NCBI GenBank assembly: GCA_015232575.1
Contig: JADFZL010000003.1
Location: 64,001 to 128,000, forward strand
DNA length: 64,000 nucleotides
Direction: 5' to 3'
Source: Candidatus Rifleibacteriota bacterium
Lineage (GTDB): Bacteria; Muiribacteriota; Ozemobacteria; Ozemobacterales; Ozemobacteraceae
Below the pieces are notes generated by a model. It saw only the letters and a program-made list of their open reading frames with translations, searched no databases and was not told the DNA's origin. This document shows positions 7,771 through 64,000 of the stretch, in pieces. How positions within the stretch are numbered: position 1 is the first letter of the stretch; each line of letters opens with the position of its first letter. The position numbers and the translations under genes were made by a program.

Positions 7771-7784
7771 TTATTGTTGTGCAA

Positions 7785-9601: not shown

Positions 9602-9646
9602 AGAAAAGGCTTCGTAAAACACCACTAATAGCTTTGCAGTGAAAGT

Positions 9647-9694
9647 GAAATCCTCTCTCAAATTATTATTTTGAGGGAGGATTTCATTTTTTTG
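9647..9694 (+). terminator. rho-independent terminator (GAAATCCTCTCTCAAA-loop-TTGAGGGAGGATTTC followed by T-run)
   Basis: 15-bp stem with one G-T wobble, T7 tract. Confidence 0.7.
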
Positions 9695-9811
9695 TCTTTT
9701 GTGATAAGCTGACGAAGTAATACGCTTCCCGAAAAGTTATTTGGTGTATTTCTACTGTGTGTATTATTATTTCGGGGTTGTTAGATATACTCAACGGGAG
9801 ATGATCAACAC

Positions 9812-11260: not shown

Positions 11261-11336
11261 AATTCAGGTAAACCTCAATTTACAATTGGTGAATTAATAT
11301 AGAGCAGTAAAGAGCAGTTTAAAAGAGGACAGAAAT

Positions 11337-12209: not shown

Positions 12210-12225
12210 AATTTAGAGAATAAAT

Positions 12226-13185: not shown

Positions 13186-13204
13186 TTTTTACATGGAGAA
13201 AAAT

Positions 13205-14161: not shown

Positions 14162-14180
14162 CAGACATTCAGGAGCAATA

Positions 14181-15146: not shown

Positions 15147-15258
15147 TAATTAAAAATATAGTATAATTAGCCTGAAGCAATCTTTTCAATAAACTGAGAA
15201 TGATATTCTTTTATTTTACGCACTGAACAAGCAAAAAAGCGTCTCCTGAGGAACAAAA

Positions 15259-36877: not shown

Positions 36878-37711
36878 GTGATAAAAGTAATTTTCCCATT
36901 GATTCTGGCTTTGCTTAGTGCTTTTTGGGCATATTCTGACTTTTCAGAAAATACTCTGCTCATATTAACATTTCACGGTGTTACCGATAATCCGCAGCTT
37001 CCATGGGAAATTTCATATTTAAAGTTGAAAGATTGTGTTGATAAATTCGAAAATTCAGGATACAGGCATATTTCGCCCGATTTGGTCGAAAAATGGCTTT
37101 CTGGAGAAGATCGCAAGGGGAGATTCATTTTCATCACATTTGATGATGGTTTAAAGTCATCTTATCATGCAATGAAAATGTTATATTCAGAAAAGCAGAT
37201 TTTCTCGGGAATTTTTCTAATCACAGATTTTATTGGAAAGCCCGGTTATGTTTCAACGGAAGATATTCTTGAACTGAACTCATCAGGTTTTCATATTTTT
37301 CTCCACGGAAAATCACATGATTCACCGCAGAAGTTGGAAAAGATGAAACTGGTTTCTGACTTAAAGTATGCGTCAAAATTTCTGAGTGAATTAGCGTCTA
37401 CTTCTTTTCGAAGCTGGTATGCATATCCGTATGGTGAATATAATGAAGCATCTGTTGATGCAGTAAAGCTATCAGGTTTGAGATATGCTTTTACGATAGA
37501 TGGAGACAGCATATCGGCACCTCAATCTAACCTTCTTTTGGTGCCAAGAGTTATGTATCTTAAAGCACCAGAAGATTCTTCAGAGTCTGTTTTTCATGAC
37601 TGGCTTCCTCCAGATAATATTCGCACTGGATATTTAAAAATTCTTATATCTTTATTTCTTCTGATGTTTTCTGCATTTTCATTCCTGAAAAGAGGCTCTG
37701 ACAAACAATAA
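36878..37711 (+). CDS. polysaccharide deacetylase (CE4/NodB) family protein
   Basis: 'FITFDDGLKSSY' NodB motif; starts 1 nt after the preceding stop. Confidence 0.7.
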   Translation: MIKVIFPLILALLSAFWAYSDFSENTLLILTFHGVTDNPQLPWEISYLKLKDCVDKFENSGYRHISPDLVEKWLSGEDRKGRFIFITFDDGLKSSYHAMKMLYSEKQIFSGIFLITDFIGKPGYVSTEDILELNSSGFHIFLHGKSHDSPQKLEKMKLVSDLKYASKFLSELASTSFRSWYAYPYGEYNEASVDAVKLSGLRYAFTIDGDSISAPQSNLLLVPRVMYLKAPEDSSESVFHDWLPPDNIRTGYLKILISLFLLMFSAFSFLKRGSDKQ

Positions 37712-37812
37712 TTAAATAATTTATCAATAATACTGCAGTCATGATATTTTGACAATTATCAGTTATTATGCGAAAATTGTCACCGTTAAATTCATCCACA
37801 GGAGACCAAATT

Positions 37813-39237
37813 GTGAAAATCTCTAATCCGCTTGTTTTTAAAGAATATGATATCAGAGGTGTTGTAAAAAAGGATTTGCCCGGCGATCTGGTTTTTGCTA
37901 TCGGAAAAGCATTTGCAAAGTATGTTTTTGAAAAAAAAGGTAATAAATATCCGAAAATGGCTATTGGTAGAGATGTAAGACTTTCAAGCCCCGATCTTTT
38001 CAATCATATCAGCAATGCTTTTATTGAAAGCGGTGTAGAAGTAATAGATCTTGGAATTTGTCCAACACCTCTTGTATATTTTTCATTGTTTCATCTTCCT
38101 GTTGATGGAGCTGTAATGATAACCGGAAGCCATAATCCGGCTGAGTTCAATGGTTTTAAACTTTGTCACAGTAAAACAACTCTTTTTGGAAAACAGATTC
38201 AGGAAATTCGTGAAAGAATTGAAAAAGAAGATTACATAAGTGGCAACGGAAAACTTGAAAAGTTCGATATAATTTCCGCATACAATGAATATCAGAAGAA
38301 ACGTCACAGTAACCTGAAACAAGGTAATCAGAACCTTTCAGTAGTAGTAGATTCGGGAAATGGTACAGCATCGACAGTTGTTCCTCCGCTTTTAAGAGAT
38401 CTCGGGTGCCGTGTCACTGAACTTTTCTGTACTCTTGATGGAAATTTTCCAAATCATCATCCGGATCCAACCATTCCTGAAAATCTCCAGGCACTTATCG
38501 AACGTGTCAGAAGCGAGAAAGCAGATCTTGGAATAGCCTTCGATGGAGATGCCGACCGACTTGGCGTTGTCGATGAAAATGGCAGAATTCTTTGGGGCGA
38601 TGAAATTATGGTTGTTCTTGCAAAAGACATATTGAAAAGGCATCCCGGTGCCTCTATTATTGGCGAAGTAAAATGCAGTCAGAGAATGTACGATGCAATA
38701 AACTCATCAGGCGGAAAAGCTATGATGTGGAAGACAGGACATTCATTGATCAAGAATAAAATGAAAGAGGAAAAAGCTTTACTGGCTGGCGAAATGAGCG
38801 GACACCTCTTTTTTGCAGAAGATTATTTCGGCTATGATGATGCGGTTCATGCAGCGCTTGAAGTTTTGAGAATTCTTTCAGATCACAAGGCAAATAAAGG
38901 AAAAGGGCTTTCTGAACTTCTGTACGGTCTTCCGGATGTGATTGCTACTCCAGAAATCAGAATTGACTGTGATGATACAAAAAAATTTGAGATTGTCAGC
39001 AAAGTTTCAGAATATATGTCAAATCACTTGAAACAACGGCTGACACCAGTAATAAAAAGTATAAACTGTATCGATGGTGTCAGAGCAGAATTTGAAAAAG
39101 GCTGGGGGCTGGTAAGGGCATCCAACACTCAACCAATACTCGTATCAAGATTCGAAGCAATCGCTTCATCAGAACTTGAATCGTATAAAGCACTTTTCAA
39201 TAAAGCAATCGAATTAGCAAAGGTGTCAAATAAATAA
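37813..39237 (+). CDS. phosphomannomutase/phosphoglucomutase (alpha-D-phosphohexomutase)
   Basis: 'FKEYDIRG' N-terminus, active-site 'TGSHNPAEFNGFK', metal loop 'FDGDADR'; the start may be GTG 37813 or the track's 37768. Confidence 0.85.
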   Translation: MKISNPLVFKEYDIRGVVKKDLPGDLVFAIGKAFAKYVFEKKGNKYPKMAIGRDVRLSSPDLFNHISNAFIESGVEVIDLGICPTPLVYFSLFHLPVDGAVMITGSHNPAEFNGFKLCHSKTTLFGKQIQEIRERIEKEDYISGNGKLEKFDIISAYNEYQKKRHSNLKQGNQNLSVVVDSGNGTASTVVPPLLRDLGCRVTELFCTLDGNFPNHHPDPTIPENLQALIERVRSEKADLGIAFDGDADRLGVVDENGRILWGDEIMVVLAKDILKRHPGASIIGEVKCSQRMYDAINSSGGKAMMWKTGHSLIKNKMKEEKALLAGEMSGHLFFAEDYFGYDDAVHAALEVLRILSDHKANKGKGLSELLYGLPDVIATPEIRIDCDDTKKFEIVSKVSEYMSNHLKQRLTPVIKSINCIDGVRAEFEKGWGLVRASNTQPILVSRFEAIASSELESYKALFNKAIELAKVSNK

Positions 39238-45279: not shown

Positions 45280-46431
45280 TTGAAAGGAAAACAAATCTTG
45301 AATCTTGAATTTGATGAAAGAGACAAAGAGTTGTTGGCCTGCTGGCAGGATTTTGCCAAAAATGGTCTGAACAGAATAACTGCTTCGTTAGAAACTGAAT
45401 CTGCAATAACATCAGATTCGCTTCAGGTGCTCAGGGAAGCCGGTCTTCTAAAGTATTTTCTTCCGAAAAACCTCGGGGGAGAGGAACTTGGCTTTACTTC
45501 TCTCGCACTGCTTCTTGAGGAAATAGGACAGATTTCTCCAATTACCGCACTTTTGATTGCAAATCAGGTGATACTCGGTATAAGAGGCTTCCTCAGATAT
45601 TCGAATGACTCTCAGCGTGAAAAATTTGCAGTTGACGCAGCAAATTTTGAAAATATTGTTTCGCTTGCGGTTTCCGAAAATAACGCTGGAAGCGACTTAT
45701 CACTGATAAGCACTTCCTATTTTGATAAAACCGATAAATTCGTAATTTCCGGAAAAAAGGCTTTTGTAAATTTTGCCTGTATTGCAAAATCGGTGCTTGT
45801 TCTCGCAAAGAAAGATTTGCCGGATCAGGGATCTGAAGTATCTATGCTTGCTCTCGCATTGCCAACCGATAAGGTAAAATTCAGCCCTTCTCTTCCAACT
45901 CTCGGTATGAATGGAATGTGTGCTTCGGAAGTAGATCTTTCCGAGGCAGAGGTTTCAAAATCATCAATTTTTGGTGCCACGGGATGCGGAATTGACGTTT
46001 TTAATCGTTTAATGAAAGAATTCAGAATCTGTATTGCGGCCATTGCAACCGGAATTGCCCAGGGGTCTTTCAACCAGGCTGTAAATTATGCAAAAACCCG
46101 GAAGCAGTTTGGGAAGCCAATCGGTTCATTTCAGGGCCTTCAGTGGAGATTTTCTGACCATGCCACCAGAATTGATGCCTCCAGATTACATGTCTGGAAA
46201 GCTATTGAAGAAGTTTCCGAAAAGATCTTTTCAGGTCGTAATTCCGCTATGGCAAAAATTTATTCAACCGAAACTGCCTGCATGGTAACTGATTTTGCAC
46301 TTCAGGTTCTTGGAAGTTCAGGCTATGTAAAGGGTTCGCTGAGTGAAAAACTTTTCAGGGACAGCAGGTTTCTGAGAATGAGTTATGGCTCGTCAGAAAG
46401 ATTAAAAGACTTTTTGACCGATTATTTGTAA
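45280..46431 (+). CDS. acyl-CoA dehydrogenase family protein
   Basis: TTG start; ACAD-like middle and C-terminal domains ('FGKPIGSFQGLQWRFSD'). Confidence 0.7.
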   Translation: MKGKQILNLEFDERDKELLACWQDFAKNGLNRITASLETESAITSDSLQVLREAGLLKYFLPKNLGGEELGFTSLALLLEEIGQISPITALLIANQVILGIRGFLRYSNDSQREKFAVDAANFENIVSLAVSENNAGSDLSLISTSYFDKTDKFVISGKKAFVNFACIAKSVLVLAKKDLPDQGSEVSMLALALPTDKVKFSPSLPTLGMNGMCASEVDLSEAEVSKSSIFGATGCGIDVFNRLMKEFRICIAAIATGIAQGSFNQAVNYAKTRKQFGKPIGSFQGLQWRFSDHATRIDASRLHVWKAIEEVSEKIFSGRNSAMAKIYSTETACMVTDFALQVLGSSGYVKGSLSEKLFRDSRFLRMSYGSSERLKDFLTDYL

Positions 46432-46454
46432 ATTTTTATCGCCAGGTAGAACAG

Positions 46455-47243
46455 ATGAATATTATTGTAACCGTTAAACAGGTTCCGGATACAAATGATG
46501 TCAGAATTGATCCGGAAACAGGAACTTTGATCAGAGAAGGCGTCCCCAGTATCGTCAACCCCGAAGATCGACATGCAGTTGAAATGGCTGTAGAGCTGCG
46601 TGAACGCATCGGCTCAGGAAAAGTGACCGTTATTTCAATGGGTCCGCCGCAGGCCGAAGTGGCTTTGCGCGAAGTCCTGGCTATGGGTGCCGATGAAGCG
46701 ATTTTATTGTCCGACCGGGCTTTTGCAGGTGCTGATACTCTTGCAACTGCATACACGCTTATGCTTGCAGTTCGGAAACTCGGAAAATATGATCTTATAA
46801 TTTGTGGCAGACAGGCTATTGATGGTGACACTGCACAGGTTGGACCGCAATTGGCAGAATTTCTCGGAATTCCGCAGATTACTTATGCTCTTGATGTTGA
46901 AATTGTTGAAGGAAAACTGAGAGCACTTCGTCAGCTTGATGACGGCACTCAAACTCTTGAAACTCCTTTGCCCGCTCTTTTAACGTGCATCAAGGAATCA
47001 AATACGCCGCGTATTCCGACCCTTAAAGGCTGCATAACAGCTTATAGACACAAGACTGTTCAGGTCTGGAATGCTTCTTATGTTCAGGCACCTGCTGAAT
47101 CAATTGGTCTTAAGGGTTCACCAACTCAGGTTAGACGCACTTTTCAGCCGCCTTCACGTGGTGAAGGACTTGTATTAACTGGTGACGTTTCTGACAGTGT
47201 TAATACTGTGATTGGAAAATTAAGAGAAAAGGGTCTATTTTAG
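46455..47243 (+). CDS. etfB: electron transfer flavoprotein beta subunit
   Basis: 'MNIIVTVKQVPDTNDVRIDPETGTLIREGVPSIVNPEDRHAVE' canonical EtfB N-terminus. Confidence 0.9.
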   Translation: MNIIVTVKQVPDTNDVRIDPETGTLIREGVPSIVNPEDRHAVEMAVELRERIGSGKVTVISMGPPQAEVALREVLAMGADEAILLSDRAFAGADTLATAYTLMLAVRKLGKYDLIICGRQAIDGDTAQVGPQLAEFLGIPQITYALDVEIVEGKLRALRQLDDGTQTLETPLPALLTCIKESNTPRIPTLKGCITAYRHKTVQVWNASYVQAPAESIGLKGSPTQVRRTFQPPSRGEGLVLTGDVSDSVNTVIGKLREKGLF

Positions 47244-47253
47244 GGAGCAGATA

Positions 47254-48465
47254 ATGGCAATCGAAATCTCCAGAGAAAAATGTGTAGGATGCGGGCTTTG
47301 TCTAAAGGCTTGCCCCTACGATGCAATAGATCTTACAGAGCGCAAAGCTTCGCTCAACGAAAAATGTGTGCATTGCGGAAGCTGTGTTGACAGTTGTAAA
47401 TTTGCAGCGATTCTTTCTGTTTCAGATGGCACTCAGAAAAGAGATCTATCGGATTTTAAGGGCATTGCTGTTTTCGCAGAAAGAAAAGGCAACGACCTGG
47501 CAAAGGTTACGCTTGAACTTCTCGGTTGTGGAAGGGCACTGGCTGACAAACTTGGCGTTCCGCTCAAAGCGGTTCTTCCATGCGGCAGCGCTGCCGATAT
47601 GCCCCTGAAAATGATTGGATATGGTGCAGATGAAGTTATCGTTGTAGAACATGATGAACTCAATGATTACAGAACAGCACCCTATACCAGAGCATGCGTT
47701 TCTGTACTTGCAGATATAAAGCCGGAGATATTTCTCATCGGAGCCACACCGCAGGGAAGAGATTTGGCCCCGCGTGTTGCAAACAGGCTTCGCACTGGAT
47801 TGACCGCCGACTGTACATCATTGGCAATAGAAGACAATACCGGGTTGCTGATGCAGACCAGACCAGCTTTTGGTGGGAATGTCATGGCAACAATAGTATG
47901 TCCTAATCATCGCCCTCAGATGTCTACCGTTCGGCCGGGCGTAATGAAATCAATTAAGTTCGATCAGGCAAGAAAAGGAATTGTCAGAACACTTCCTGTG
48001 ACATTCAAACCCGTCGATTTGAATGTGCTGATTCTTGAGGTTGTTAATGATACTTGCAGAAAGATTGATATTTCTGAAGCTTCAATAATTGTTGCCGGTG
48101 GCAGAGGTGTTGGAAATCCTGCTGGATTCAGAATGATTGAAGAACTTGCATCATCTCTTGGCGGCCAGGTTGGAGCATCAAGAGCTGCAGTTGAATCAGG
48201 CTGGATAAGCCACGATCATCAGGTTGGACAGACAGGTAAATCTGTCAGCCCGAAACTTTATATCGCCTGCGGAATAAGCGGTGCTATTCAGCATCTCGCT
48301 GGTATTTCAGGTGCAGACTGCATTATTGCTATCAATAAAGACCCGGAATCACCAATGGTAAAAGCAGCTGATTATGCAATAATTGGTGATCTGAACCAGG
48401 TTGTGCCATCATTTACAAAAGAAATCAATAGAATTCGCAAGGAGTCTCAAGGTGATAGAATTTAA
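47254..48465 (+). CDS. etfA: electron transfer flavoprotein alpha subunit with N-terminal 2x[4Fe-4S] ferredoxin domain
   Basis: Two CxxCxxCxxxCP motifs ('CVGCGLCLKACP', 'CVHCGSCVDSC') followed by EtfA FAD-binding domain ('IACGISGAIQHLAG'). Confidence 0.85.
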   Translation: MAIEISREKCVGCGLCLKACPYDAIDLTERKASLNEKCVHCGSCVDSCKFAAILSVSDGTQKRDLSDFKGIAVFAERKGNDLAKVTLELLGCGRALADKLGVPLKAVLPCGSAADMPLKMIGYGADEVIVVEHDELNDYRTAPYTRACVSVLADIKPEIFLIGATPQGRDLAPRVANRLRTGLTADCTSLAIEDNTGLLMQTRPAFGGNVMATIVCPNHRPQMSTVRPGVMKSIKFDQARKGIVRTLPVTFKPVDLNVLILEVVNDTCRKIDISEASIIVAGGRGVGNPAGFRMIEELASSLGGQVGASRAAVESGWISHDHQVGQTGKSVSPKLYIACGISGAIQHLAGISGADCIIAINKDPESPMVKAADYAIIGDLNQVVPSFTKEINRIRKESQGDRI

Positions 48466-49597
48466 ACTTACTCCGGAACAGGAGCTTATAAGAGCCTCTG
48501 CACGCGAATTTGCCGCTAAACACATTGCTCCTTATGCAGCTGAATTAGATGAAAAACAGGAATTCTCATGGGAAATAGCCCGAAAGATGTCTGAACAAGG
48601 TTATTTCGGGATTACAGCCCCTGTAGAATATGGCGGTGCAGGTGCAGATACCCTTACATATTGTCTGATTATTGAGGAAATATCGCGGGCCTGCGCCGGG
48701 CATGGTGTTACCATGTCTCTGACAAATTCTCTTGTCGCTCATCCAATTGCAACTTATGGCTCTGAAGAGATAAAACAGAAGTATCTTGTACCACTTTCTT
48801 CCGGAAAAAAGCTTGGATGCTTTGCATTGACAGAACCAAACGCCGGATCAGATTCAGCTAACCAGGAAACAATAGCAGTTCCAGACGGTGACAGTTGGAT
48901 ATTAAATGGCAGCAAGATATTTATTTCTAATGGCGGTGTTGCTGACTTTGCTGTAGTAATTGCATCTACAAATAAAAAAGCCAGAATACGCGGTTTGACG
49001 GCTTTTATTGTCGATAAAGATTCACCTGGTTTTTCTGTTGGTGTGAAGGAAAATAAGCTTGGAATACGTTCTTCAAATACCTGTGAATTGGTATTTCAAA
49101 ATTGCAGAATTCCCAAAGAAAATATTCTTTCAACACCGGGAAGAGGCTTCAGAATTGCAATGGACACTCTTGACGGCGGAAGAATCGGCGTTGGGGCTCA
49201 GGCAGTTGGAATTGCTGAAGCAGCCTATCAGGCTTCACTGAAATACGCGCATGAAAGAAAACAGTTCGGCAGCTCAATTATCCACTTTCAGGGAATTGCC
49301 CACAAGCTTGTAGAAATGAAAACTGAGATTGAAACTGCCAGATTACTGACCTGGAAAGCTGCATGGCTGAAAGATAATAAAAAGCGATTTGCAAAAGATG
49401 CTGCCATGGCAAAACTGTATGGTTCAGAAATGTCGACAAAAGTCTGCCACCAGGCAATCCAGATTCATGGCGGATATGGTTTCATTAAAGACTATCCGGT
49501 TGAGAGATATTACCGCGATGCCAGAATTACTGAAATTTATGAAGGTACCAGCGAAGTACAGAGAATGGTTATTGCCTCTTATGTTCTGGGCGTTTGA
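48452..49597 (+). CDS. short/butyryl-chain acyl-CoA dehydrogenase
   Basis: GTG start 48452 after AAGGAG (MIEFKLTPEQ...); ACAD signatures 'CFALTEPNAGSD' and 'YEGTSEVQRMVIA'. Confidence 0.85.
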   Translation: MIEFKLTPEQELIRASAREFAAKHIAPYAAELDEKQEFSWEIARKMSEQGYFGITAPVEYGGAGADTLTYCLIIEEISRACAGHGVTMSLTNSLVAHPIATYGSEEIKQKYLVPLSSGKKLGCFALTEPNAGSDSANQETIAVPDGDSWILNGSKIFISNGGVADFAVVIASTNKKARIRGLTAFIVDKDSPGFSVGVKENKLGIRSSNTCELVFQNCRIPKENILSTPGRGFRIAMDTLDGGRIGVGAQAVGIAEAAYQASLKYAHERKQFGSSIIHFQGIAHKLVEMKTEIETARLLTWKAAWLKDNKKRFAKDAAMAKLYGSEMSTKVCHQAIQIHGGYGFIKDYPVERYYRDARITEIYEGTSEVQRMVIASYVLGV

Positions 49598-49618
49598 TAT
49601 ATTTTTCTGGAGAGAGAA

Positions 49619-50539
49619 ATGATTGAGACTGAAAATTTTTTCGATACTCTGTTAGAGCGATCAAAGTGGAAAAGCGTTGTCAGGCTTGCTGTACCTGTTG
49701 CACAGGACGAAGCATGTGCTTCAGCTATAATTAAGGCCGTTAAAGCCGAAATTATTGAAGCTATATTGATTGGAAATCCAGTAGAACTCAAGAATTTCTA
49801 TTCGGAAATTCTTGATTGCAGCGGTGTAAAGATCATATCGTCCATGGAACCTGAGGAAGCTTGTAAAAAGGCTGTTGAACTTGTAAGAAATGATGAAGCT
49901 GATCTGCTGATGAAGGGACTTGTATCAACTTCTACAATATTAAAGGCAGTTCTGAATTCGCAGACTGGAATTAAGAGAAATCCTCTTCTTTCGCATCTCG
50001 CATTCTTTGAACTGAGAAACTACCCCGGCTTGAAACTTCTCACTGATGCTGCAATCAATATTGCTCCAGATGCTGATGCTCTTGGAAAGATTGCCGCAAA
50101 TGCTGTTGAAGCATATAAAAATCTTACCGGAAAAACCCCGAAAGTAGCACTTCTTTCAGCAAATGAAAAAGTATCTGAAAAAGTATCAAGTACTGTTTTA
50201 GCAAAAACAGTATCAGAGAAAATGAGTAGTTTTGAAGGCGCTGTTATTTCCGGACCCGTGTCACTTGATCTTGCAATCAGCCCCGAATCAGTAAAAATTA
50301 AAAAATTCACCGGAAGCATTCAGGGCGATGCTGATATTCTGGTCGCACCCAGAATCGAAACCGGGAATGTTTTGTATAAATCTCTTCAGTATTTTGCCAG
50401 GGCAAAAATGGGCGGTGTCGTTTTTGGTGCAAAATGTCCTGTTGTTCTTACCTCAAGATCTGATAGCAATGAAACAAAATTGAATTCACTTTTGCTCGGA
50501 ATAAGTCTTTTAAGATCAAAAACCGGACCAAGCAAATGA
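49619..50539 (+). CDS. phosphate butyryltransferase / phosphate acyltransferase family
   Basis: Pta/Ptb-type fold: 'ADLLMKGLVST' and 'SANEKVSEKVSSTVLAK' regions; size about 300 aa. Confidence 0.7.
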   Translation: MIETENFFDTLLERSKWKSVVRLAVPVAQDEACASAIIKAVKAEIIEAILIGNPVELKNFYSEILDCSGVKIISSMEPEEACKKAVELVRNDEADLLMKGLVSTSTILKAVLNSQTGIKRNPLLSHLAFFELRNYPGLKLLTDAAINIAPDADALGKIAANAVEAYKNLTGKTPKVALLSANEKVSEKVSSTVLAKTVSEKMSSFEGAVISGPVSLDLAISPESVKIKKFTGSIQGDADILVAPRIETGNVLYKSLQYFARAKMGGVVFGAKCPVVLTSRSDSNETKLNSLLLGISLLRSKTGPSK

Positions 50540-56116: not shown

Positions 56117-56428
56117 TTAAGCTTTGATCTCTTCGATCTGGATAGCAGTAAAGTCCTGCCTGTGACCATATTTCCGACGGTAATTGGTCTTGTTTTTGTA
56201 TTTCATACCAACAAGTTTTGCACCTCTACCGTGTGATACGACCCTGGCTTTGACATCTACACCTGAAAGGTATGGCTGTCCGATTTGAACTTTCTGTCCA
56301 TCATTAAGAAGGAGAACCTTCTCAACGCTGAAAAGATCATTTGCTTCGCGTTCCATTTTCTCACAACGAATTTTTGAACCTTTTTCCACGGAAAACTGTT
56401 TTCCGCATACTTCTATGATTGCGTACAT
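56117..56428 (-). CDS. rplU: 50S ribosomal protein L21
   Basis: 'MYAIIEVCGKQFSVEKG' canonical L21 N-terminus. Confidence 0.95.
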   Translation of the reverse strand: MYAIIEVCGKQFSVEKGSKIRCEKMEREANDLFSVEKVLLLNDGQKVQIGQPYLSGVDVKARVVSHGRGAKLVGMKYKNKTNYRRKYGHRQDFTAIQIEEIKA

Positions 56429-56687
56429 TGTACTTACCCCCTGAATATTAACCGTTAGAAAGTCTAATCTATCACAAGAATCTTATTATGTCAAGGTTTA
56501 TGAGTAAATATTTCGTTTTTTTTCGGCAACTTCACAACTATTTTCAATAGGATAGTCCATTGAAAAGCCCAATTAGAGGCTTATTATAAGTTGAATTTAA
56601 TTTTTGTAAAATATTAATAATATAGGATTTAGAATCGAAGGTTTGTGATATAATTATCTCCTGTTGTTATAAAAAAATAGTGGGCAA

Positions 56688-57623
56688 ATGGAGCGAATAT
56701 TCATGCCTGAAAAACATGCACGGGTTGGGGCAGTAATGCTTACCTGGAATCAACGGGAAATGACGCTTGCCGGACTTGAATCACTTTCAAAACTTCATTC
56801 TCCTGTACCTGAAATTCTACTGGTCGATAATGGCAGCTTTGATGGAACAATTGATGCAGTAAAAGAACGTTTTCCACAGGTGAAAATTCTGGGGTTGCCT
56901 GAAAATATAGGATTCTGCGCTGCAAACAATCGTGGTGCAGATCTTTTGCTGAAAAATCCGGAAATTGAATATATTATCTTTCTGAATAATGATATCGAAA
57001 TAGCTCCAAATGCAATAAATCTCCTGACACGTTTTATGGATTCCCGTCCGGAAGCCGCTGTATGCGGGCCTCTGATATACTATCATGAACCTTCTGACAT
57101 AATTTGGGCAGCAGGTGGAAAGATTTACTCAGATCTAATGTGGTTTCCTCCGAATTTGCGAGGGAAGAAGAATCCGGGACTGAGAAAGCCACGACAGGTT
57201 GATTATATTCATGGCTGTTCAATCATGCTAAGGCGCTCTGCAATCCAGGAACACGGTCTTTTTGATGAAAGGCTCTTTATTTACCACGATGAAATTGATT
57301 TATGCCATCGTTTAAAATTGGCCGGGAATGAAATATGGCTGATTCCTGAAAGTGTATTGTTCCACAAGGTATCTCTTGCCGTCGGCCAGCATAGTCCGAT
57401 GATGATATATTACACAGCTCGGAATAAAATTCTTTTCTGGGCAAAACATGGAAAAATTTCAGACCTTCCGAAATTCTATGCTTTTCATCTTCTAAAATTG
57501 ATCAGAATATTTTCTAAAGTCCGTAATATCTGGGCTTATCCAGCTCTCTTCAAAGCACTGTTTGATGCCGTAACATCACGATTTGGCAAAGGGCACCTTG
57601 AAAATCGTCCAAAAACAAAATAA
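56688..57623 (+). CDS. family-2 glycosyltransferase
   Basis: 'AVMLTWNQREMT...LLVDNGSFDGT' GT2 DxD-type N-terminal domain. Confidence 0.8.
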   Translation: MERIFMPEKHARVGAVMLTWNQREMTLAGLESLSKLHSPVPEILLVDNGSFDGTIDAVKERFPQVKILGLPENIGFCAANNRGADLLLKNPEIEYIIFLNNDIEIAPNAINLLTRFMDSRPEAAVCGPLIYYHEPSDIIWAAGGKIYSDLMWFPPNLRGKKNPGLRKPRQVDYIHGCSIMLRRSAIQEHGLFDERLFIYHDEIDLCHRLKLAGNEIWLIPESVLFHKVSLAVGQHSPMMIYYTARNKILFWAKHGKISDLPKFYAFHLLKLIRIFSKVRNIWAYPALFKALFDAVTSRFGKGHLENRPKTK

Positions 57624-58606
57624 TGATATTTGATATTGACCTCGATAAATTTAAAAGAAGCCTCGGATTACGGGAATTATTTCTTAAAACTATTTTGCCG
57701 TTGAAATATCCGATAATTCTTAATATTGAACCAACTAATCGATGCAATCTCTCTTGTACATTCTGTCCAAGAAAAATCAGTAAAAGGAAACTTGCAGATA
57801 TTCAATGGATTGATTTCGAGAAAATAGCTCAGGAAGCAGCAGACAATGGACCTATCTACAAAATATTTCTTCAGAAAGATGGCGAACCATTGCTTCATCC
57901 GAAAATAGTTGAGATGGTTCAATGTCTTAAATCTCTTAATTCCGCGCGCAATGTTACTATAATTTCGAATGGTACACTTCTCAATGGCGATCTTTTCACA
58001 TCTCTGGCAAAAGCCGGATTGAATGACATCATCATCAGTGTTGATGCGGTTGATGCCAGGTCCTATTCAGAATTAAAAGGCAGAGATTGTTACCATACAG
58101 TAAAAAAGAATCTTGAAGAGGCTGCCAGAATAAAGAATATTTCAGGCTTTAAAGGTCCGCGTATAAAAGCCAGAATGGTTGAGAGAAAAGGTCATGAAAT
58201 TGAAAAAGAAGTTTTTTCTCAAATCTGGTCAGGTATTGCTGATTCGGTTGATATCACCCCTTTCCACACCTGGATGAATTCAGTTGAAGATCAACGGACC
58301 TATACTTCCAGTATTGAAAGGTATCCCTGTTCGCTTTTATGGTACACCGGAATAATTAATGCAGATTTGTCAGTTTCTCCCTGTTGTATTGATTATAACT
58401 GTGCAGGAGTAATTGGAAGCCTTGAACATAGTAATTTCTATTCAGTCTGGAACGGGCGTGAATTCAATAATCTGAGAAGAAACCATTTGTTTTCAGAATA
58501 TTCGAATACAAGGATTTGTGGTTCCTGCCAATATTGGCTAATAAAAGAAAATCTCGGGAAATGGTTTAGAAGAAAATACAGAATTCAGAAGGCATCAGGA
58601 AGGTAA
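57623..58606 (+). CDS. radical SAM protein with C-terminal SPASM/twitch cysteine-rich domain
   Basis: 'EPTNRCNLSCTFCP' CxxxCxxC; C-terminal Cys cluster 'CSLLWY...PCCIDYNCAG...CGSCQYW'; ATGA overlap with the GT2 gene. Confidence 0.8.
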   Translation: MIFDIDLDKFKRSLGLRELFLKTILPLKYPIILNIEPTNRCNLSCTFCPRKISKRKLADIQWIDFEKIAQEAADNGPIYKIFLQKDGEPLLHPKIVEMVQCLKSLNSARNVTIISNGTLLNGDLFTSLAKAGLNDIIISVDAVDARSYSELKGRDCYHTVKKNLEEAARIKNISGFKGPRIKARMVERKGHEIEKEVFSQIWSGIADSVDITPFHTWMNSVEDQRTYTSSIERYPCSLLWYTGIINADLSVSPCCIDYNCAGVIGSLEHSNFYSVWNGREFNNLRRNHLFSEYSNTRICGSCQYWLIKENLGKWFRRKYRIQKASGR

Positions 58607-58610
58607 ATAC

Positions 58611-60053
58611 ATGAATACTCCCCGAATAGCTTTTGTCAACCCGCCCTTTCTTCCAAGGTATTCAAGAGGGCAGCGATCCCCAGCCGTGACCAGAAGTGGC
58701 ACATTGTATTATCCAATGTGGCTTGCCTATTCTGCAGCTCACGCCCAGAGACTCGGTTGTGATTACACTTTGATTGATTCGCCAGCATCTTCTTTGTCTT
58801 TTGAGGAAACTATTAAAAAAATTCGGGAATTCGCACCTGATTTAACAATTATTGAAGCAGCGACACCAAGTGTCCTTTCAGACCTGAATTTTGCTTTACG
58901 CATTAAGAATGAGAGAATTTCACCGTATGTTGTTGCAGCCGGAACTCATGTCTCAGCATTGCCCGAAGAAGCTTTTCAGTTTGCTCCCGAGCTTGATGCT
59001 GTCATAGTAGGTGAATACGAGATTCCTCTGGAAGAAATTGTTAATGCACTTCGGAAAGGTTCTGATTTTGAAAATCTTGAAGGTGTTTCAACAAAAAAAC
59101 GTCCGGTTATTACGCGCAGTCGATATTTCGAAAACTTAGATGAACGCCCCTTTGTTTCGGAAATTTACAAAAAATTTCTTCCAATTGATGAATATTTTAA
59201 TCCAAATGCACATCATCCGATGGTTGCAATCATCACCGGACGAGGTTGTCCGCACTTCTGCTCTTTTTGTGTTTTTCCACAGACGCTGACCGGAAGAAGA
59301 TATCGAAAGCGCTCTGTTTCTTCTGTAATTTCCGAATTCTGTTGGATTTCCGAAAATCTTCCACAGGTAAAAGGGATATTTATCGAAGATGATACCTTTA
59401 CTGCTGATAGAAATCGTGTTGAAGATTTCTGCCGTGAACTTGCCAGGATCAATCTTCCAGTTACATGGTCAGCGAATGCAAGAGCGGATGTTGAATCAGA
59501 GACAATTCAACTTATGAAAAAATCGAATCTTCGTGCTTTATGTGTCGGCTTTGAAAGCGGAAATCAGGAAATCCTTGAAAAAATCGGGAAGGGAATTTCC
59601 CTTGAACGCATGAGAAAATTTGCCGAAGATTCGCGCAGCGCTGGAATTCACGTTCATGGCTGCTTTATAGCCGGGTTGCCTGGTGAAACACGCTTAACTC
59701 TTCATAAGACTCTGCAATTTGCCCTTTCACTTCCGCTTGACACTGCACAATTTTATCCGCTTATGGTTTACCCAGGTACTAGAGCTTATGATTATGCAAA
59801 ACAGAATGATCTGATTGCAGTTAAAACCTACCGTGAATGGCTTTCACCCGAGGGACTTCACCGATGTGTTGTTAAGACAGATGATTTCTCTCCTGAACAA
59901 CTTGTTCGTTTCTGTAATTTTGCCAGACGAAGGTTTTATTTGAGAAAGTCATATCTTTTTGAAATGCTCAAAAGAGTTATAACAAAGCCAGATGAGCGTC
60001 ACAGGGCAATTCTTTCTGCCAGAACATTTCTGAAACACCTGTTGAAAGACTGA
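58611..60053 (+). CDS. B12-binding-domain radical SAM protein, HpnJ-like
   Basis: N-terminus 'AFVNPPFLPRYSRGQRSP...YYPMWLAYSAA' resembles the HpnJ family start; 'GRGCPHFCSFCVFP' radical-SAM motif. Confidence 0.75.
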   Translation: MNTPRIAFVNPPFLPRYSRGQRSPAVTRSGTLYYPMWLAYSAAHAQRLGCDYTLIDSPASSLSFEETIKKIREFAPDLTIIEAATPSVLSDLNFALRIKNERISPYVVAAGTHVSALPEEAFQFAPELDAVIVGEYEIPLEEIVNALRKGSDFENLEGVSTKKRPVITRSRYFENLDERPFVSEIYKKFLPIDEYFNPNAHHPMVAIITGRGCPHFCSFCVFPQTLTGRRYRKRSVSSVISEFCWISENLPQVKGIFIEDDTFTADRNRVEDFCRELARINLPVTWSANARADVESETIQLMKKSNLRALCVGFESGNQEILEKIGKGISLERMRKFAEDSRSAGIHVHGCFIAGLPGETRLTLHKTLQFALSLPLDTAQFYPLMVYPGTRAYDYAKQNDLIAVKTYREWLSPEGLHRCVVKTDDFSPEQLVRFCNFARRRFYLRKSYLFEMLKRVITKPDERHRAILSARTFLKHLLKD

Positions 60054-61081
60054 TGATGAACAATAAAAATGTCTATGCATCTGTCGTAATTCCTGTCTAT
60101 AACAGGGCTGATCTTCTTGAAAAGTGTTTAATTGCATTGAGTCAGCAGAAGACTTCCTTTTCCCACGAAGTTATTGTTGTTGATGATTGCTCTGTTGAAG
60201 ATTTGTCAAACGTCAGATACAACTTTGAAAAAGGGGATCTTAAGATAACGTGGCTAAGACTTCCTGAAAATTCAGGTCCGGCAGTTGCACGGAATGCCGG
60301 AATAAAGGTTGCTGAAGGAGAAATCATAGTTTTTACAGACTCTGATTGTGTTCCAATTGATTCCTGGCTTCAGAAAATGCTTGTACCTTTTTCTGATGCT
60401 GCTGTGTCAGGGGTAAAAGGTTCATATAAAACAACTCAGACAGACACCTGGGCAAGACTTTCCCAGGTCGAATTCGAAGAACGTTTCGATTTGCTGGATG
60501 CTGCTTCCAGCGTAGATTTCGTAGATACTTATTCAGGAGCATTCAGAAAAAAGCACCTTATTGAAACAGGCGGCTTCGATACTTCTTTTCCAAAAGCAGA
60601 TAATGAAGACGTTGAATTGTCTTTCAGAATCAAGGCTCTTGCCGGAAATTCTGGCGGAAAATTTGTATTTGTAAGAGACGCAGTTGTTTTTCATCGCCAC
60701 CGCGAAGGTTTCTGGAACTATTTCAGACTGAAATTTAATCGTGGCTACTGGCGAAGTAAAGTATATGAAAAACACCCAAAAATGGCTGGAAAAGAAAGCT
60801 ATACTCCGGCAACCCTGAAGATTCAGTTCTTGCTTATTGTACTATTGCCATTTTTGTTTGTACTGCCCATAAAAAAAAGAAATTCGTCTGCAGTAATATT
60901 TTCTTTATGGCTTGCTTCATGTCATAACATGTTTTTTAATGCATACAACAAAAATAATCAAGATCTGATTCCAGCAATTCCATTTTTTACAGCAGCAAGA
61001 GCAATTGCAATACTTTCCGGAATGTTGTACTCATTCCTTTCATCAGTAAACCATGTCTTACCAGTGAAGATAAAGTGCTGA
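60053..61081 (+). CDS. family-2 glycosyltransferase with C-terminal transmembrane segment
   Basis: 'SVVIPVYNRADLLEKCL' and 'VVDDCSVED', 'FTDSDCVP' DxD motifs; hydrophobic C-terminal helices. Confidence 0.8.
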   Translation: MMNNKNVYASVVIPVYNRADLLEKCLIALSQQKTSFSHEVIVVDDCSVEDLSNVRYNFEKGDLKITWLRLPENSGPAVARNAGIKVAEGEIIVFTDSDCVPIDSWLQKMLVPFSDAAVSGVKGSYKTTQTDTWARLSQVEFEERFDLLDAASSVDFVDTYSGAFRKKHLIETGGFDTSFPKADNEDVELSFRIKALAGNSGGKFVFVRDAVVFHRHREGFWNYFRLKFNRGYWRSKVYEKHPKMAGKESYTPATLKIQFLLIVLLPFLFVLPIKKRNSSAVIFSLWLASCHNMFFNAYNKNNQDLIPAIPFFTAARAIAILSGMLYSFLSSVNHVLPVKIKC

Positions 61082-61297: not shown

Positions 61298-62692
61298 CTA
61301 CTTGATGCTTTTTCGGCCGGTTTTGCTTCTTTCTTTGGCTTTTTTCAGTCTGTCAAGTGCTGCCTTTACTGCTGGCGAATCAACCGAATTTTCACCCAGT
61401 GCTTTGTTGTATGCTTTGAATGCTTCGAAATATTCTTCTTCTGCTGAAATCATATCCTGTCCTGCTCCGGTTACAGGCGTATCTAAAAGAGGGCTCTGAT
61501 TATTTTTTGAATCATCAAGAGTCATAAACTTAGTTTCAGAAGGAGCAATTGTTGTTACGCCATCGCCATCAGCATAGTTGGCAGAAAGAGTGCTGTTCAT
61601 GCCTGTGGTACTTTCAGACGGCTGTGAACTTGGGGAAAGACCGGCAAAATCTTCGTCAAATGAGAAGATATTTTTGAAGACTCTTGAAAAGAAACTCTTA
61701 ATCGATGTCCAGAAAGAGCCTGAAAAAACGCTTCCGTTGCTTCCTGTGCCACCTGAATTAGCACGTGAATTTATGTAGTTGTACATGTCCTGATTAACAA
61801 CATTTGATCCGTTATTCACATAATTGAGCAGTTCAGATTGTGAAATCTTCCCTTTGCTGTTACTGTCAAGAATTTGTGCAAGTCTTACCTGGTCCTGGGG
61901 ATACATTGAAAGATAGCCTTTGCAGAAATCTTTCAGACTGTTATGAGGACCTGAGTAAGTTATTGAGTTAAATACTTTTGTCTTGCCATCGCCGCCATTC
62001 TGAAAAAGGTCATTTATTACCTTGGCATTGAACAACTCATTTCTGGACATTTCTTCAAAAGATTTTGCCTGAAGGAAATTCAGAACAGAATTATCATTTA
62101 TGTTAAGAGAGAATATCATTCCATTGTTTTTGTTGGCAGCAAAGGCATTAGCCCAACCTTCTACCCAGGCTGTCTTGTTATTGGGAAGTATTTCATCCAT
62201 GTAATGGGCATTATCAGAACCATAGTCAAGTCCGGAAAAATTATATGAACTCGGGTAAGCATTCAACATGGCAACATGGCCAAGTTCGTGAAGGAAAATG
62301 AATTTCTTACTTTCGGGAGTTGTGTATTGGGTAACGTGTTTGTACAAAGTTATATTATAACCACTTGTATTTTTTGAAGATGTGGAAATCGAGTTTTTAT
62401 CACTGATGGTTAAATTTAACGGCAGAGCCAGAGATGAAGATACATCCAGGGTGTAACCAAGAAGAGTTTTGTTGCCGACCGGTTGATTGAGATAATCTCT
62501 CCATGGACTTCCCACGGGGAGATCATTGACTGATGTAATCTGATATTTCTGCGATCCTATCTGATTTCCGTAATAGTCATAGATTGCTTTTTCATAGAAC
62601 AGGTTCAGAGGTGCAGAATGGGCAATTGTACAAACAGAAACCAGAACAAGCATCAAAACCCATATTTTATTCAATACAGCCACATTTTTCAT
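61298..62692 (-). CDS. secreted protein with an HEXXH zinc-metallopeptidase-like motif (hypothetical)
   Basis: Signal peptide; 'FIFLHELGHVAML' HEXXH; S/N-rich low-complexity C-terminal half. Confidence 0.5.
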   Translation of the reverse strand: MKNVAVLNKIWVLMLVLVSVCTIAHSAPLNLFYEKAIYDYYGNQIGSQKYQITSVNDLPVGSPWRDYLNQPVGNKTLLGYTLDVSSSLALPLNLTISDKNSISTSSKNTSGYNITLYKHVTQYTTPESKKFIFLHELGHVAMLNAYPSSYNFSGLDYGSDNAHYMDEILPNNKTAWVEGWANAFAANKNNGMIFSLNINDNSVLNFLQAKSFEEMSRNELFNAKVINDLFQNGGDGKTKVFNSITYSGPHNSLKDFCKGYLSMYPQDQVRLAQILDSNSKGKISQSELLNYVNNGSNVVNQDMYNYINSRANSGGTGSNGSVFSGSFWTSIKSFFSRVFKNIFSFDEDFAGLSPSSQPSESTTGMNSTLSANYADGDGVTTIAPSETKFMTLDDSKNNQSPLLDTPVTGAGQDMISAEEEYFEAFKAYNKALGENSVDSPAVKAALDRLKKAKERSKTGRKSIK

Positions 62693-62847
62693 AATTCACC
62701 TCTTTTCATGCCGAATACACTTATTATAATCAACAGAAAAAAAAACGTCTACAAAAATACTTTAAAAAAATAACTAAATATTTAACTTTTCTATGACGAT
62801 GAATAACGTGAGATAAAAGATTTATTTCGAAAGGAGGTGAAAAAACA

Positions 62848-64000
62848 TTGAATAATCAGGTAAATAGTCAAATTCAAAATGATTTGTCCGGTTTTTTCGC
62901 AGTACAATCAAAGGGTTTATCCGGCAATTCATCAAGTGGGCAGTCAGGAAGTGCGTTTGCCTCGTTTTTCAAAACTTTCATCAGTGCACAGAATACCACA
63001 GACGATTCTACCAAAGCAAAAGTAGCTTCAATGCAGCGTTTTTCCGCAATTCAGCCGGCACAGATTTCACTGTTTCAGAAAAGTATATCTAATCAGAGGC
63101 CTGTTTCTGAAGTGAAGCAGTATTCAGAAAAAAAATCTGATTCATTGAACTCTGATTTGAAGACATTCAAGGAAAAAATTGCATCTCAGATCAATGCTTC
63201 TCGTAAAAACAGTCCAAGAAGCTCGGTGGTAAAGGCTTTTTCAAATAATGATAAAACTGAAAGCTTGAAAAAAGATGACGTTCAAAGTGCAGAAAGTAAA
63301 GATTCAGCACAAAAATCAGGTGTCAGAAAAGATATTCAATTGCAGGAGAAAGTTTCTGATAATAAACAAGCAGAAAAATCTCCTGAATCAGAAAATAATC
63401 AGACAGATGAGAACAAAATAGTCAAAAGTTCAGAAGAGCTTAATTCTTCAGGAAGTTCCATTAATTCTGGAAATAGCGTCTCTTCATCTGAGAATCAATC
63501 TGATGAAAACCTTGAAGACCCTGAGAGCAAGAATGCAAAAGAGTCTCCTGATACTGTGACGGAAGATGAAAAAGTTATTTTTTCGTTACTGAAAGATGAG
63601 GTTATTAGTTCAAATACCGATGAAGATTACTTCGGTGCAGAAAATCTGTATGAAAAGCTGATTACTGATATAGATAACGAAAAATTAAAACTGGAACTTG
63701 AAAAAATCAAGACCATGCTTCCTGATATGAATCTTGATAATTCTGAAAAGCTCTCTATTCTTACCAGATTGACACTTGATGAAAATGTGGCAAAAACTGA
63801 GAAAACCGTTTCTGATGCTCTTAAATCGGTTGCGAAAAATCTTTCAGAAAATTCAGAAAAATCAAATTCCGGCAAGCTTTTTAAATCTGAATTAACAGTA
63901 AAGGAAGTTAAAAGTTCCGATTCTGAAGAGGTTAAAACTCAGAAAGTTCCTGCTGAATTGACTGAATCTGCAATCTCAAAAGTGCCAGATGAAAGCTCAG
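62848..64000 (+). CDS. 5'-partial-window ORF (runs off the window end) encoding a low-complexity S/E/K/N-rich protein
   Basis: TTG start 7 nt after strong RBS AAGGAGGTGA; open frame for 384 codons to the window end; absent from the ORF track because no stop lies in the window. Confidence 0.6.
   Translation, partial: MNNQVNSQIQNDLSGFFAVQSKGLSGNSSSGQSGSAFASFFKTFISAQNTTDDSTKAKVASMQRFSAIQPAQISLFQKSISNQRPVSEVKQYSEKKSDSLNSDLKTFKEKIASQINASRKNSPRSSVVKAFSNNDKTESLKKDDVQSAESKDSAQKSGVRKDIQLQEKVSDNKQAEKSPESENNQTDENKIVKSSEELNSSGSSINSGNSVSSSENQSDENLEDPESKNAKESPDTVTEDEKVIFSLLKDEVISSNTDEDYFGAENLYEKLITDIDNEKLKLELEKIKTMLPDMNLDNSEKLSILTRLTLDENVAKTEKTVSDALKSVAKNLSENSEKSNSGKLFKSELTVKEVKSSDSEEVKTQKVPAELTESAISKVPDESS

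Follow-up and report, generated by a model that had tools for sequence, protein, structure and literature searches.

The closest described counterparts of the system considered here belong to hopanoid side-chain biosynthesis, where genetic work in Burkholderia cenocepacia indicates that the family 2 glycosyltransferase (GT2) HpnI, the deacetylase HpnK and the radical S-adenosylmethionine (radical SAM) enzyme HpnJ convert bacteriohopanetetrol (BHT) successively into BHT-N-acetylglucosamine, BHT-glucosamine and BHT cyclitol ether. HpnJ is among the few cobalamin-dependent radical SAM enzymes that are thought not to be methylases, and its chemistry has never been reconstituted. A related logic without hopanoids is found in ArnC/ArnD/ArnT and in Bordetella LgmA/LgmC/LgmB, in which a membrane GT2 loads a lipid carrier with a sugar, a deacylase unmasks an amine and a GT-C enzyme transfers the sugar to lipid A or core; we know of no radical SAM step in either system. 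A third likeness, by concept only, is with the calditol synthase Cds of Sulfolobus acidocaldarius, a radical SAM enzyme that makes the cyclopentyl head group calditol from a hexose already linked to lipid, so that a sugar is remodelled into a carbocycle after its attachment to a membrane lipid (PMC13459092; PMC9092360). Here we describe a four-gene operon, with genes designated A to D, in a 64,000-nt stretch of DNA (hereafter the window) from a Candidatus Rifleibacteriota bacterium (GenBank assembly GCA_015232575.1, contig JADFZL010000003.1, positions 64,001 to 128,000 of the forward strand). In our reading, to which we assign a probability of roughly 45%, this operon makes the sugar head group of a membrane-anchored glycoconjugate of the envelope that is not a hopanoid, and modifies it by radical chemistry. 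An HpnJ-type module has probably been re-deployed on such a glycoconjugate, with a lineage-specific extension in Riflebacteria.

Four co-directional open reading frames (ORFs) on the plus strand fill positions 56688-61081, with overlaps at two of their junctions:

56688-57623, plus strand: gene A, a soluble GT2 of 311 aa, with an alternative start codon at 56703
57623-58606, plus strand: gene B, a radical SAM enzyme of 327 aa with a C-terminal SPASM/twitch-type auxiliary Fe-S domain
58611-60053, plus strand: gene C, a cobalamin-binding (class B) radical SAM enzyme of 480 aa
60053-61081, plus strand: gene D, a predicted membrane-integrated GT2 of 342 aa, in which interface and transmembrane helices follow a GT-A domain
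56429-56687, between divergent genes: an AT-rich intergenic region of 259 bp separating rplU from gene A
56117-56428, minus strand: rplU, divergent from and upstream of gene A

The A/B junction reads TAATG and the C/D junction TGATG, each a 1-nt overlap, and B and C are separated by a 4-nt gap with GGAAGG preceding it. Because of these overlaps and this short gap, we regard A-D as a single translationally coupled operon. The ORFs, the junctions, the Pfam matches and the helices predicted for D bear out the original prediction of a coupled GT2, SPASM radical SAM, B12-binding radical SAM and membrane GT2 cluster beside rplU. Sigma-70-like hexamers were found on both strands of the intergenic region, and those at 56560-56587 on the plus strand agree with the consensus at 10/12 positions (these are consensus matches only); positions 56429-56687 are likely the promoter region of the operon, and no conserved small ORF was found within them. 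A Prp protease gene and rpmA accompany rplU divergently upstream of the operon.

The relationship of gene C to HpnJ is central to our interpretation. Its product combines a B12-binding domain (PF02310, 43.2 bits, cutoff 32.1) with a Radical_SAM domain (PF04055, 84.1 bits) that contains a CxxxCxxC motif, the combination that defines class B radical SAM enzymes, and the cluster cysteines C213/C217/C220 are invariant. Against the HpnJ model TIGR03471 gene C scores 367.5 bits (E 1e-109), with residues 8-477 aligned to positions 5-467 of the 472 in the model, so that the two are colinear over their full length. The NCBIfam runners-up are BchE (128 bits), a PhpK-type family (113 bits) and the HpnR methylase model (84 bits). 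The HpnJ likeness that had been proposed for this protein is therefore real, and by nearest family gene C is not a generic class-B methylase. Membership in the HpnJ clade itself was not supported, as gene C falls below the curated equivalog cutoff of 577.6 bits, as do ten members of its own clade from Riflebacteria, Nitrospirota, Planctomycetota and Desulfobulbia (339-458 bits).

The same picture emerged from a neighbour-joining tree of 131 B12-binding radical SAM sequences with 200 bootstrap replicates. Gene C was placed in a separate clade of 79 sequences, which holds all of the cluster-anchoring proteins and lies next to HpnJ, and the other B12-binding radical SAM paralogs of the same loci fell outside it. 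The C clade and the HpnJ clade were each recovered in 200/200 replicates, and the two together in 133/200 (66%). Mean identities were 50% within the C clade, 35% between the C clade and HpnJ, and 25% between the C clade and the paralogs. Our HpnJ reference set, to which gene C is about 32-36% identical, consisted of PGAP-annotated hpnJ genes from Burkholderiaceae replicons (33-36%) and an unannotated Methylobacterium match that was taken as HpnJ on similarity alone. The alignment showed that YPxWLA, CxxxCxxC and many core residues are common to gene C and genuine HpnJ. The N-terminus had been described as HpnJ-like on account of both its NPPF and YPxWLA elements; the second of these does occur in genuine HpnJ, whereas the first belongs to a stretch, NPPF...QRSPAVT(K/R)SGT, that is specific to C's own clade, and HpnJ has QAPSFDGFDGGAGSRYQ there. 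A sequence search of the PDB returned no close relatives of the operon's products; for gene C the best match was AprD4 (78 bits, core only). Taken together, profile scores and tree place gene C in an uncharacterised clade beside HpnJ, which is by far its nearest family. We found no paper on this clade, on its association with GT9 and lipopolysaccharide (LPS) genes, or on Riflebacteria and hopanoids.

Homologs of gene C are sometimes named HpnJ, BchE-type cyclase or coproporphyrinogen oxidase by their sources, and such automatic annotations would wrongly imply hopanoid or tetrapyrrole metabolism. If the first of these names were taken at face value, the operon would serve ordinary hopanoid side-chain biosynthesis, with gene C as a divergent HpnJ and shc/hpn genes elsewhere in the genome. 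HpnJ is indeed the best family for gene C, a close homolog (P0020) bears that name while scoring 377 bits against the model, and some carriers of the clade, the anammox bacteria Kuenenia and Brocadia, are known hopanoid producers with squalene-hopene cyclase (SHC) (bioRxiv 10.1101/2025.07.29.667474 supplement). We nevertheless consider this explanation very improbable, since gene C and every tested member of its clade score below the HpnJ cutoff and the clade is separate at 100% bootstrap, gene D is not HpnI, and the gene contexts of C and D are those of LPS and glycan loci, not of hpn genes. A survey of 62,143 genomes found matches to the HpnJ TIGRFAM domain only in genomes with both SHC and HpnH; the supplements of the hopanoid survey cover no Riflebacteria, Fermentibacteria or Electrothrix (bioRxiv 10.1101/2025.07.29.667474). 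Neither the window nor about 90 loci examined around relatives of the operon contained an HpnI-like match (E<=1e-5), and the association with hpnI, hpnK, shc and hpnH that would accompany an hpn pathway was not found there for the C clade. HpnK-like matches among these loci were limited to the Fermentibacteria operons, and tblastn with HpnK and YdjC sequences found nothing in the window. In agreement with what had been noted for the window, no SHC-like ORF was seen there or in the approximately 90 loci, by a screen for DxDDTA/QW motifs that constitutes weak evidence. As no HpnK, SHC or other hpn gene is present in the window, we do not assign the operon to the hopanoid pathway.

The operon nevertheless shares features of organisation with the HpnI/HpnK/HpnJ system. 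In Paraburkholderia, as here, a B12-binding radical SAM gene overlaps a membrane GT2 gene in the order radical SAM then GT2 (hpnJ-hpnI), although the order in Mycetohabitans is hpnI-hpnJ-hpnK. Gene C resembles HpnJ in its full-length alignment, its YPxWLA and cluster motifs and its grouping in the tree, and differs from it in scoring below the equivalog cutoff and in forming a separate clade. Unlike the hpn set, the window lacks HpnK, SHC and HpnH, the neighbourhoods of the C-D pair are of the LPS/envelope-glycan type, and the Riflebacteria operon has a SPASM-type radical SAM enzyme and a second GT2 without hpn counterparts.

Gene D matches Glycos_transf_2 (PF00535) with 102 bits (cutoff 23.3) and PF13506 (GT21) with 22.7 bits, just above its cutoff. 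Hydrophobic segments lie at residues 251-275 and 305-323, and an AlphaFold model (pLDDT 91.9) places C-terminal helices at 253-332, indicating that the protein is membrane-anchored through about three predicted C-terminal helices. Residues D45, D96, D98, E185, D186, R230, W233 and R234 are invariant in its family, which has the same taxonomic spread as that of gene C. Neither of the two GT2s proved to be HpnI-like: gene D scores 12.7 bits against the HpnI model TIGR03472 (cutoff 310) and 22 bits (E 0.016) against Paraburkholderia HpnI in BLASTP, and gene A gives no match to the model even at an E-value limit of 10. An assignment to the lipid-carrier GT2s of the Arn type fared little better. 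Against the ArnC model NF007986 gene D scores 25.4 bits (cutoff 529), over residues 9-104 only; phmmer comparisons with GtrB, DPMS and ArnC were weak (30, 23 and 21.5 bits), and none of these three was among its top 50 Foldseek matches.

The best full-length folds for gene D in the Foldseek search were PcManGT, the cellulose-synthase-like membrane mannosyltransferase of Pyrobaculum calidifontis (PDB 6YV7), and the Chlorella virus hyaluronan synthase (query TM-score, TMq, of 0.73-0.74 for the latter). As in PcManGT and class I hyaluronan synthase, a GT-A domain is fused to interface and transmembrane helices, although identities are only 15-21% and gene D is shorter than hyaluronan synthase. 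On these superpositions, gene D might be a processive synthase for the polymerisation and export of an exopolysaccharide, with A, B and C modifying the polymer or its primer and a secreted glycan as the product. The best NCBIfam matches of gene D, both below cutoff, are MftF (143 bits) and the exopolysaccharide glycosyltransferase model EpsD (127 bits), the source record of one gene D homolog calls it 'Hyaluronan synthase', and Bac_transf, Wzy_C and flippase genes occur in some C-D loci. We judge a polymer-making role to be unlikely. Gene D has only 342 aa and about three C-terminal helices, which are too few for the multi-helix channel of processive synthases, and its alignment covers only about half of hyaluronan synthase (target TM-score about 0.5). 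The Riflebacteria operon, moreover, has no export, co-polymerase or cyclic di-GMP components, and the tight pairing of gene D with an HpnJ-like enzyme and with lipid A and core genes fits a lipid-linked sugar better.

That pairing was assessed across genomes. With one genome per GTDB species scanned for a sequence pattern, relatives of gene C were found in 571 species, and we analysed the best 80 loci by clustering neighbouring ORFs and then counting families by tblastn, independently of gene callers, in flanks of up to 10 kb on each side of the gene C homolog; families were assigned from Pfam and NCBIfam. These loci come from Riflebacteria/Ozemobacteraceae, Fermentibacteria, Nitrospirota (including magnetotactic lineages), Desulfobulbia (including cable bacteria), Planctomycetota (including the anammox bacteria Kuenenia and Brocadiaceae) and Chloroflexota. 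The tblastn counts were as follows:

D-type GT2 with its start between -200 and +400 nt from the end of C: 58 of 77 loci
D-type GT2 in the flanks: 66 of 80 loci
GT9 (heptosyltransferase-like) in the flanks: 49 of 80 loci
Bac_transf: 27 of 80 loci
DUF362-ferredoxin: 25 of 80 loci
ArnT-like PMT_2: 24 of 80 loci
YdjC: 22 of 80 loci
LpxL-like acyltransferase: 20 of 80 loci
WecA-like: 18 of 80 loci
B-type SPASM radical SAM: 14 of 80 loci

The C-D pair is thus a conserved core, in which gene D is the near-universal partner directly downstream of C, and outside Riflebacteria the synteny comparison places this core in envelope-glycan contexts. In several phyla it is tied specifically to genes for lipid A and the inner core. 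The order in Candidatus Electrothrix is LpxL-like, GT9, DUF362, C, D, FabZ, LpxA and LpxI; in Nitrospirota it is LpxL-like ... Wzy_C ... GT9 ... DUF362, C, D; and in Planctomycetota it is C, D, Bac_transf ... flippase. The Fermentibacteria order is B12-binding radical SAM, PMT_2, B12-binding radical SAM, YdjC, PMT_2, GT9, C, D, Bac_transf ... WecA-like, with putative Wzm/Wzt-like ABC transporter genes upstream, identified by sequence inspection only. A further homolog, 41.5% identical to gene C and scoring 376 bits against the HpnJ model, is carried by the 27-kb plasmid 1 of Lawsonia intracellularis (NC_008012.1), where the locus at 5151-19753 includes SIS, HAD-IIIA and GHMP-kinase (heptose-type) genes, galE, three GT2s, a second radical SAM gene and five class-I methyltransferases. 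Judging from these neighbourhoods, the C-D pair appears to be a portable module of envelope-glycoconjugate loci. The Lawsonia plasmid, in a pig pathogen, is itself largely a surface-glycan locus.

The Fermentibacteria version is the richest, and is the best place from which to deduce the pathway. Its combination of GT2, YdjC deacetylase and radical SAM enzyme resembles the HpnI/HpnK/HpnJ trio, with HpnK as the best NCBIfam family for the YdjC protein (99 bits, cutoff 232.6), and the presence of D, YdjC and two PMT_2 genes also recalls the logic of the Arn and Lgm systems, although gene D has no ArnC-type match or fold and the window has no ArnT-like gene. In seven loci of this group (L020, L021, L031, L045, L052, L073 and L074) we observed a conserved operon of at least 15 genes, at about 3-21 kb, which holds three different B12-binding radical SAM genes, two ArnT-like PMT_2 genes and a gene for a 950-aa protein of a family that we numbered 14.

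In Nitrospirota, Desulfobulbia and Planctomycetota, a protein with a DUF362 domain and a C-terminal ferredoxin domain is encoded directly upstream of C (L001/L038, L004, L023, L029, L048, L049, L062 and other loci), in the slot that gene B holds in Riflebacteria. This protein could be a dedicated redox partner of C.

Riflebacteria have the module in a reduced form, the stand-alone A-B-C-D. Other loci of this group keep the same order, sometimes with an extra gene of unknown function between B and C, and the gene A family (family 19) lies upstream of B-C-D. Close relatives of gene B (at least 53% identity) were found in Riflebacteria only; genes A and B are Riflebacteria-specific additions to the C-D core, and the remark that the SPASM enzyme has no counterpart among hpn genes holds. 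Several Ozemobacteraceae loci (L005 5125-6603; L007 4183-5682; L017 6234-7925, minus strand) contain an extra HpnJ-related B12-binding radical SAM gene (233 bits against HpnJ) divergently upstream of A-B-C-D, of which the window has no copy; in L005 it adjoins a gene for an NDP-sugar epimerase/dehydratase.

Gene A matches PF00535 with 64.3 bits (cutoff 23.3), and its best NCBIfam family is the rhamnosyltransferase TIGR01556, at 75.6 bits below a cutoff of 200, suggesting that it is distantly rhamnosyltransferase-like. It has no transmembrane segment and no sequence relative in the PDB.

Gene B has a Radical_SAM domain (PF04055, 69.3 bits) and a SPASM domain (PF13186, 30.6 bits, cutoff 21.5), and it conforms to the SPASM/twitch definition in having a CxxxCxxC core and a C-terminal cysteine-rich domain for an auxiliary cluster. 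Among 28 homologs, the core cysteines C41/C45/C48 and four auxiliary cysteines, C236/C254/C299/C302, are invariant; C255 and C260 are present in gene B, yet are not invariant. A full SPASM motif would have seven cysteines for two auxiliary clusters, against a single cluster in a twitch domain such as that of BtrN. Because the CxxxCxxC motif lies at residues 41-48, there is no N-terminus of a size to hold a RiPP recognition element (RRE; RiPP, ribosomally synthesised and post-translationally modified peptide). The AlphaFold model (pLDDT 91.7) has as its best structural match BtrN (E 1.4e-13, target TM-score 0.76), the twitch-domain radical SAM dehydrogenase that acts on the aminocyclitol 2-deoxy-scyllo-inosamine in butirosin biosynthesis, followed by SuiB, BlsE, MoaA and DesII. 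Like BtrN, gene B is small, lacks an RRE domain and has one set of four invariant auxiliary-cluster cysteines; unlike BtrN, it has a Pfam SPASM match, and the identity is only about 15%, with SuiB, BlsE, MoaA and DesII matching nearly as well. The BtrN assignment is weak. Distant relatives of gene B occur in inconsistent contexts, beside cdsA/dxr (L091), beside an epimerase and a NUDIX gene (L092), or between a GT9 and a B12-binding radical SAM gene (L093), and the family therefore gives no clear functional lead.

The last of these loci, on an unclassified metagenome-assembled contig (1714-9705), is a further glycan locus in which GT9 occurs together with several radical SAM enzymes. It has a GT9, a SPASM radical SAM enzyme 33% identical to gene B and a B12-binding radical SAM enzyme with 239 bits against HpnJ; a TPR gene and a second GT9 are also present, as is one more B12-binding radical SAM gene, which lies on the opposite strand. 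A role of gene B in anti-phage defence was considered and set aside, as PADLOC gave only a partial viperin-core match.

SPASM radical SAM enzymes commonly mature peptides, and the operon could on that basis be imagined to make a RiPP or a mycofactocin-like cofactor, with B as the SPASM maturase, C as a peptide C-methyltransferase and A and D as glycosyltransferases that act on the peptide or cofactor. MftF is the best NCBIfam match of gene D, gene B weakly matches MftC, and SuiB and SkfB are among the structural matches of gene B. We find this explanation scarcely credible. The MftF score of 143 bits and the MftC score of 41 bits are far below the respective cutoffs of 280 and 265, no NCBIfam family is above cutoff for gene B, and mycofactocin neighbours (mftA/B/D/E) are missing; no precursor-like ORF, RRE domain, protease or transporter was found in or beside the operon; and A and B are absent from most lineages with C-D, whose neighbours are LPS and glycan genes.

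We return to an envelope glycoconjugate as the product. Beyond what is directly observed (the gene structure, the domains, the relationship of C to HpnJ, the conservation of C-D and the envelope-glycan neighbourhoods in other phyla), we infer the acceptor, the sugar, the order of the steps and the chemistry of C and B. Gene D, with its minimal synthase-like fold, would use a nucleotide sugar as donor and attach a hexose or N-acetylhexosamine, at the cytoplasmic face, to an acceptor embedded in the membrane. Gene C would abstract a hydrogen from the lipid-linked sugar and rearrange it, by analogy with HpnJ through contraction of the pyranose to a carbocycle. In Riflebacteria, gene B, BtrN-like and probably with one auxiliary cluster, may oxidise a carbon of the sugar or cyclitol that bears a hydroxyl group, or alter it in some other way, and the soluble gene A may add a second sugar. 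Candidate acceptors are lipid A or core, a polyprenyl-phosphate carrier or another glycolipid, and the product would be a glycolipid or an LPS-core or lipid-linked glycan. Cds, which is archaeal, acts on tetraether lipids and has a mechanism that is itself only proposed, differs from gene C in these respects.

The step that gene C performs is where the strongest competing explanation arises. In that alternative, gene C is a class-B radical SAM C-methyltransferase that acts on an unactivated carbon of the sugar installed by D, in the manner of MoeK5 or GenK, within the same envelope module. Most characterised cobalamin-dependent radical SAM enzymes are methylases, gene C does match the PhpK-family and HpnR methylase models, and methyltransferase genes abound at the Lawsonia locus in which a clade member lies. 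Sequence-similarity networks put HpnJ in one cluster with the C-methylases Fom3 and MoeK5 (PMC9204698), and it co-localises with them at a stringent threshold (PMC9204698; PMC12931638). Because of this co-clustering, and because the reaction of HpnJ is deduced from a knockout, C-methylation is a serious rival, if a doubtful one in our estimation. The HpnJ match of gene C is about three times that of any methylase model, HpnJ and BchE, the families that match it best, both count as non-methylating (PMC9204698), and the class-I methyltransferases in some C-D loci could supply O- or N-methylation without gene C. Ring contraction by analogy is our preferred chemistry for gene C, with C-methylation as the main rival; we favour it because the nearest families are non-methylating, and because the Fermentibacteria operons mirror the GT2/deacetylase/radical SAM logic of HpnI/HpnK/HpnJ.

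Several observations weigh against a carbocycle-forming envelope pathway as we have set it out. The ring contraction by HpnJ itself is supported by knockout evidence only, with one phenotype (PMC9092360; PMC13459092), in vitro assays exist neither for HpnJ nor for the members of the C clade, and the co-clustering of HpnJ with C-methylases also counts here. The sisterhood of C and HpnJ has only 66% bootstrap in a distance tree, and gene D has only the GT2 fold in common with HpnI. The structural matches of gene B are all similarly modest and include the peptide-modifying enzymes SuiB and SkfB. A deacetylase within the operon is confined to Fermentibacteria (22/80 loci). The Riflebacteria operon has no LPS or glycan neighbours, as tblastn of the window found no GT9, DUF362, LpxL-like, YdjC, PMT_2, Bac_transf or WecA-like gene, and the envelope context is transferred by analogy from other phyla. 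The idea that an HpnJ-type rearrangement is applied to a different acceptor therefore stands in part: C-D does occur in LPS and envelope-glycan loci elsewhere, while ring contraction is unproven even for HpnJ.

More tentatively, it is conceivable that C-D represents a widespread and undescribed pathway of anaerobic diderm phyla, in which a membrane-linked hexosamine is converted by the HpnJ-like enzyme to a carbocyclic unit of LPS core, lipid A or an envelope glycolipid, and that in Riflebacteria the resulting cyclitol is then oxidised by B and glycosylated by A. This possible pathway would extend to Riflebacteria, Fermentibacteria, Nitrospirota, Desulfobulbia including cable bacteria, anammox Planctomycetota and Lawsonia. 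If it is real, it would be the first known way in which enzymes make carbocyclic sugars for glycoconjugates of the bacterial envelope, and a non-hopanoid bacterial counterpart of BHT cyclitol ether and of archaeal calditol. Were the product an acid-stable carbocyclic head group on LPS or another envelope lipid, then environmentally dominant anaerobes, cable bacteria, anammox bacteria and magnetotactic Nitrospirota among them, would have an envelope modification that is new, as would Lawsonia, a pathogen of pigs, with a bearing on membrane robustness and on resistance to cationic peptides. It could also furnish new lipid biomarkers, or confound the attribution of cyclitol-type lipids in anoxic sediments. 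For work on the chemistry of HpnJ, the large sister clade, with relatives in 571 reference species, is a source of many further enzymes, coupled to their own glycosyltransferase, that may prove easier to handle.

The rest of the window has little apparent connection with the operon. Genes within about 10 kb are unrelated and encode acyl-CoA dehydrogenases, EtfAB, a phosphate butyryltransferase, a PocR-domain protein, an amidohydrolase, an M16 peptidase and a secreted protein without Pfam match, and no tRNA or Rfam elements were detected in the 64 kb. Two polysaccharide deacetylases had been noted elsewhere in the window in the original prediction. Both are present, but they are of the NodB type, not the YdjC/HpnK type, and are unlinked to the operon:

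185-1252: NodB-type polysaccharide deacetylase (PF01522), 55 kb from the operon
36878-37711, plus strand: NodB-type polysaccharide deacetylase (PF01522), 20 kb from the operon

The second of these lies directly upstream of a GlmM-like gene of the phosphoglucomutase/phosphomannomutase family (37768-39237, plus strand), and 36878-39237 forms a separate amino-sugar-related pair that is unlinked to the operon. Another B12-binding radical SAM gene of the window (30377-31744, minus strand, 455 aa) matches the HpnJ model over the radical SAM core only (92 bits) and falls outside the C clade. At 17580-20186 on the plus strand, an 868-aa protein in which a LuxC-type acyl-CoA reductase (253 bits) is fused to an AMP-binding acyl-activating domain could form a fatty aldehyde or alcohol, and may bear on unusual lipids in this organism.

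Directly downstream of gene D and convergent with it, positions 61298-62692 on the minus strand encode a 464-aa protein with a signal-peptide-like N-terminus and a HELGH zinc-metalloprotease motif at residue 135, for which no Pfam match was found. Beyond it, an ORF of at least 396 aa (about 62810-64000, plus strand) runs off the end of the window; its product is of low complexity and rich in Ser, Glu, Lys and Asn, which accounts for the strong AT skew of the last 2 kb. Upstream of the operon, a butyrate-type fermentation block at 45280-50539 on the plus strand comprises genes for an acyl-CoA dehydrogenase, EtfB, EtfA, a second acyl-CoA dehydrogenase and a phosphate butyryltransferase, and its EtfA carries an N-terminal 2x[4Fe-4S] ferredoxin domain.

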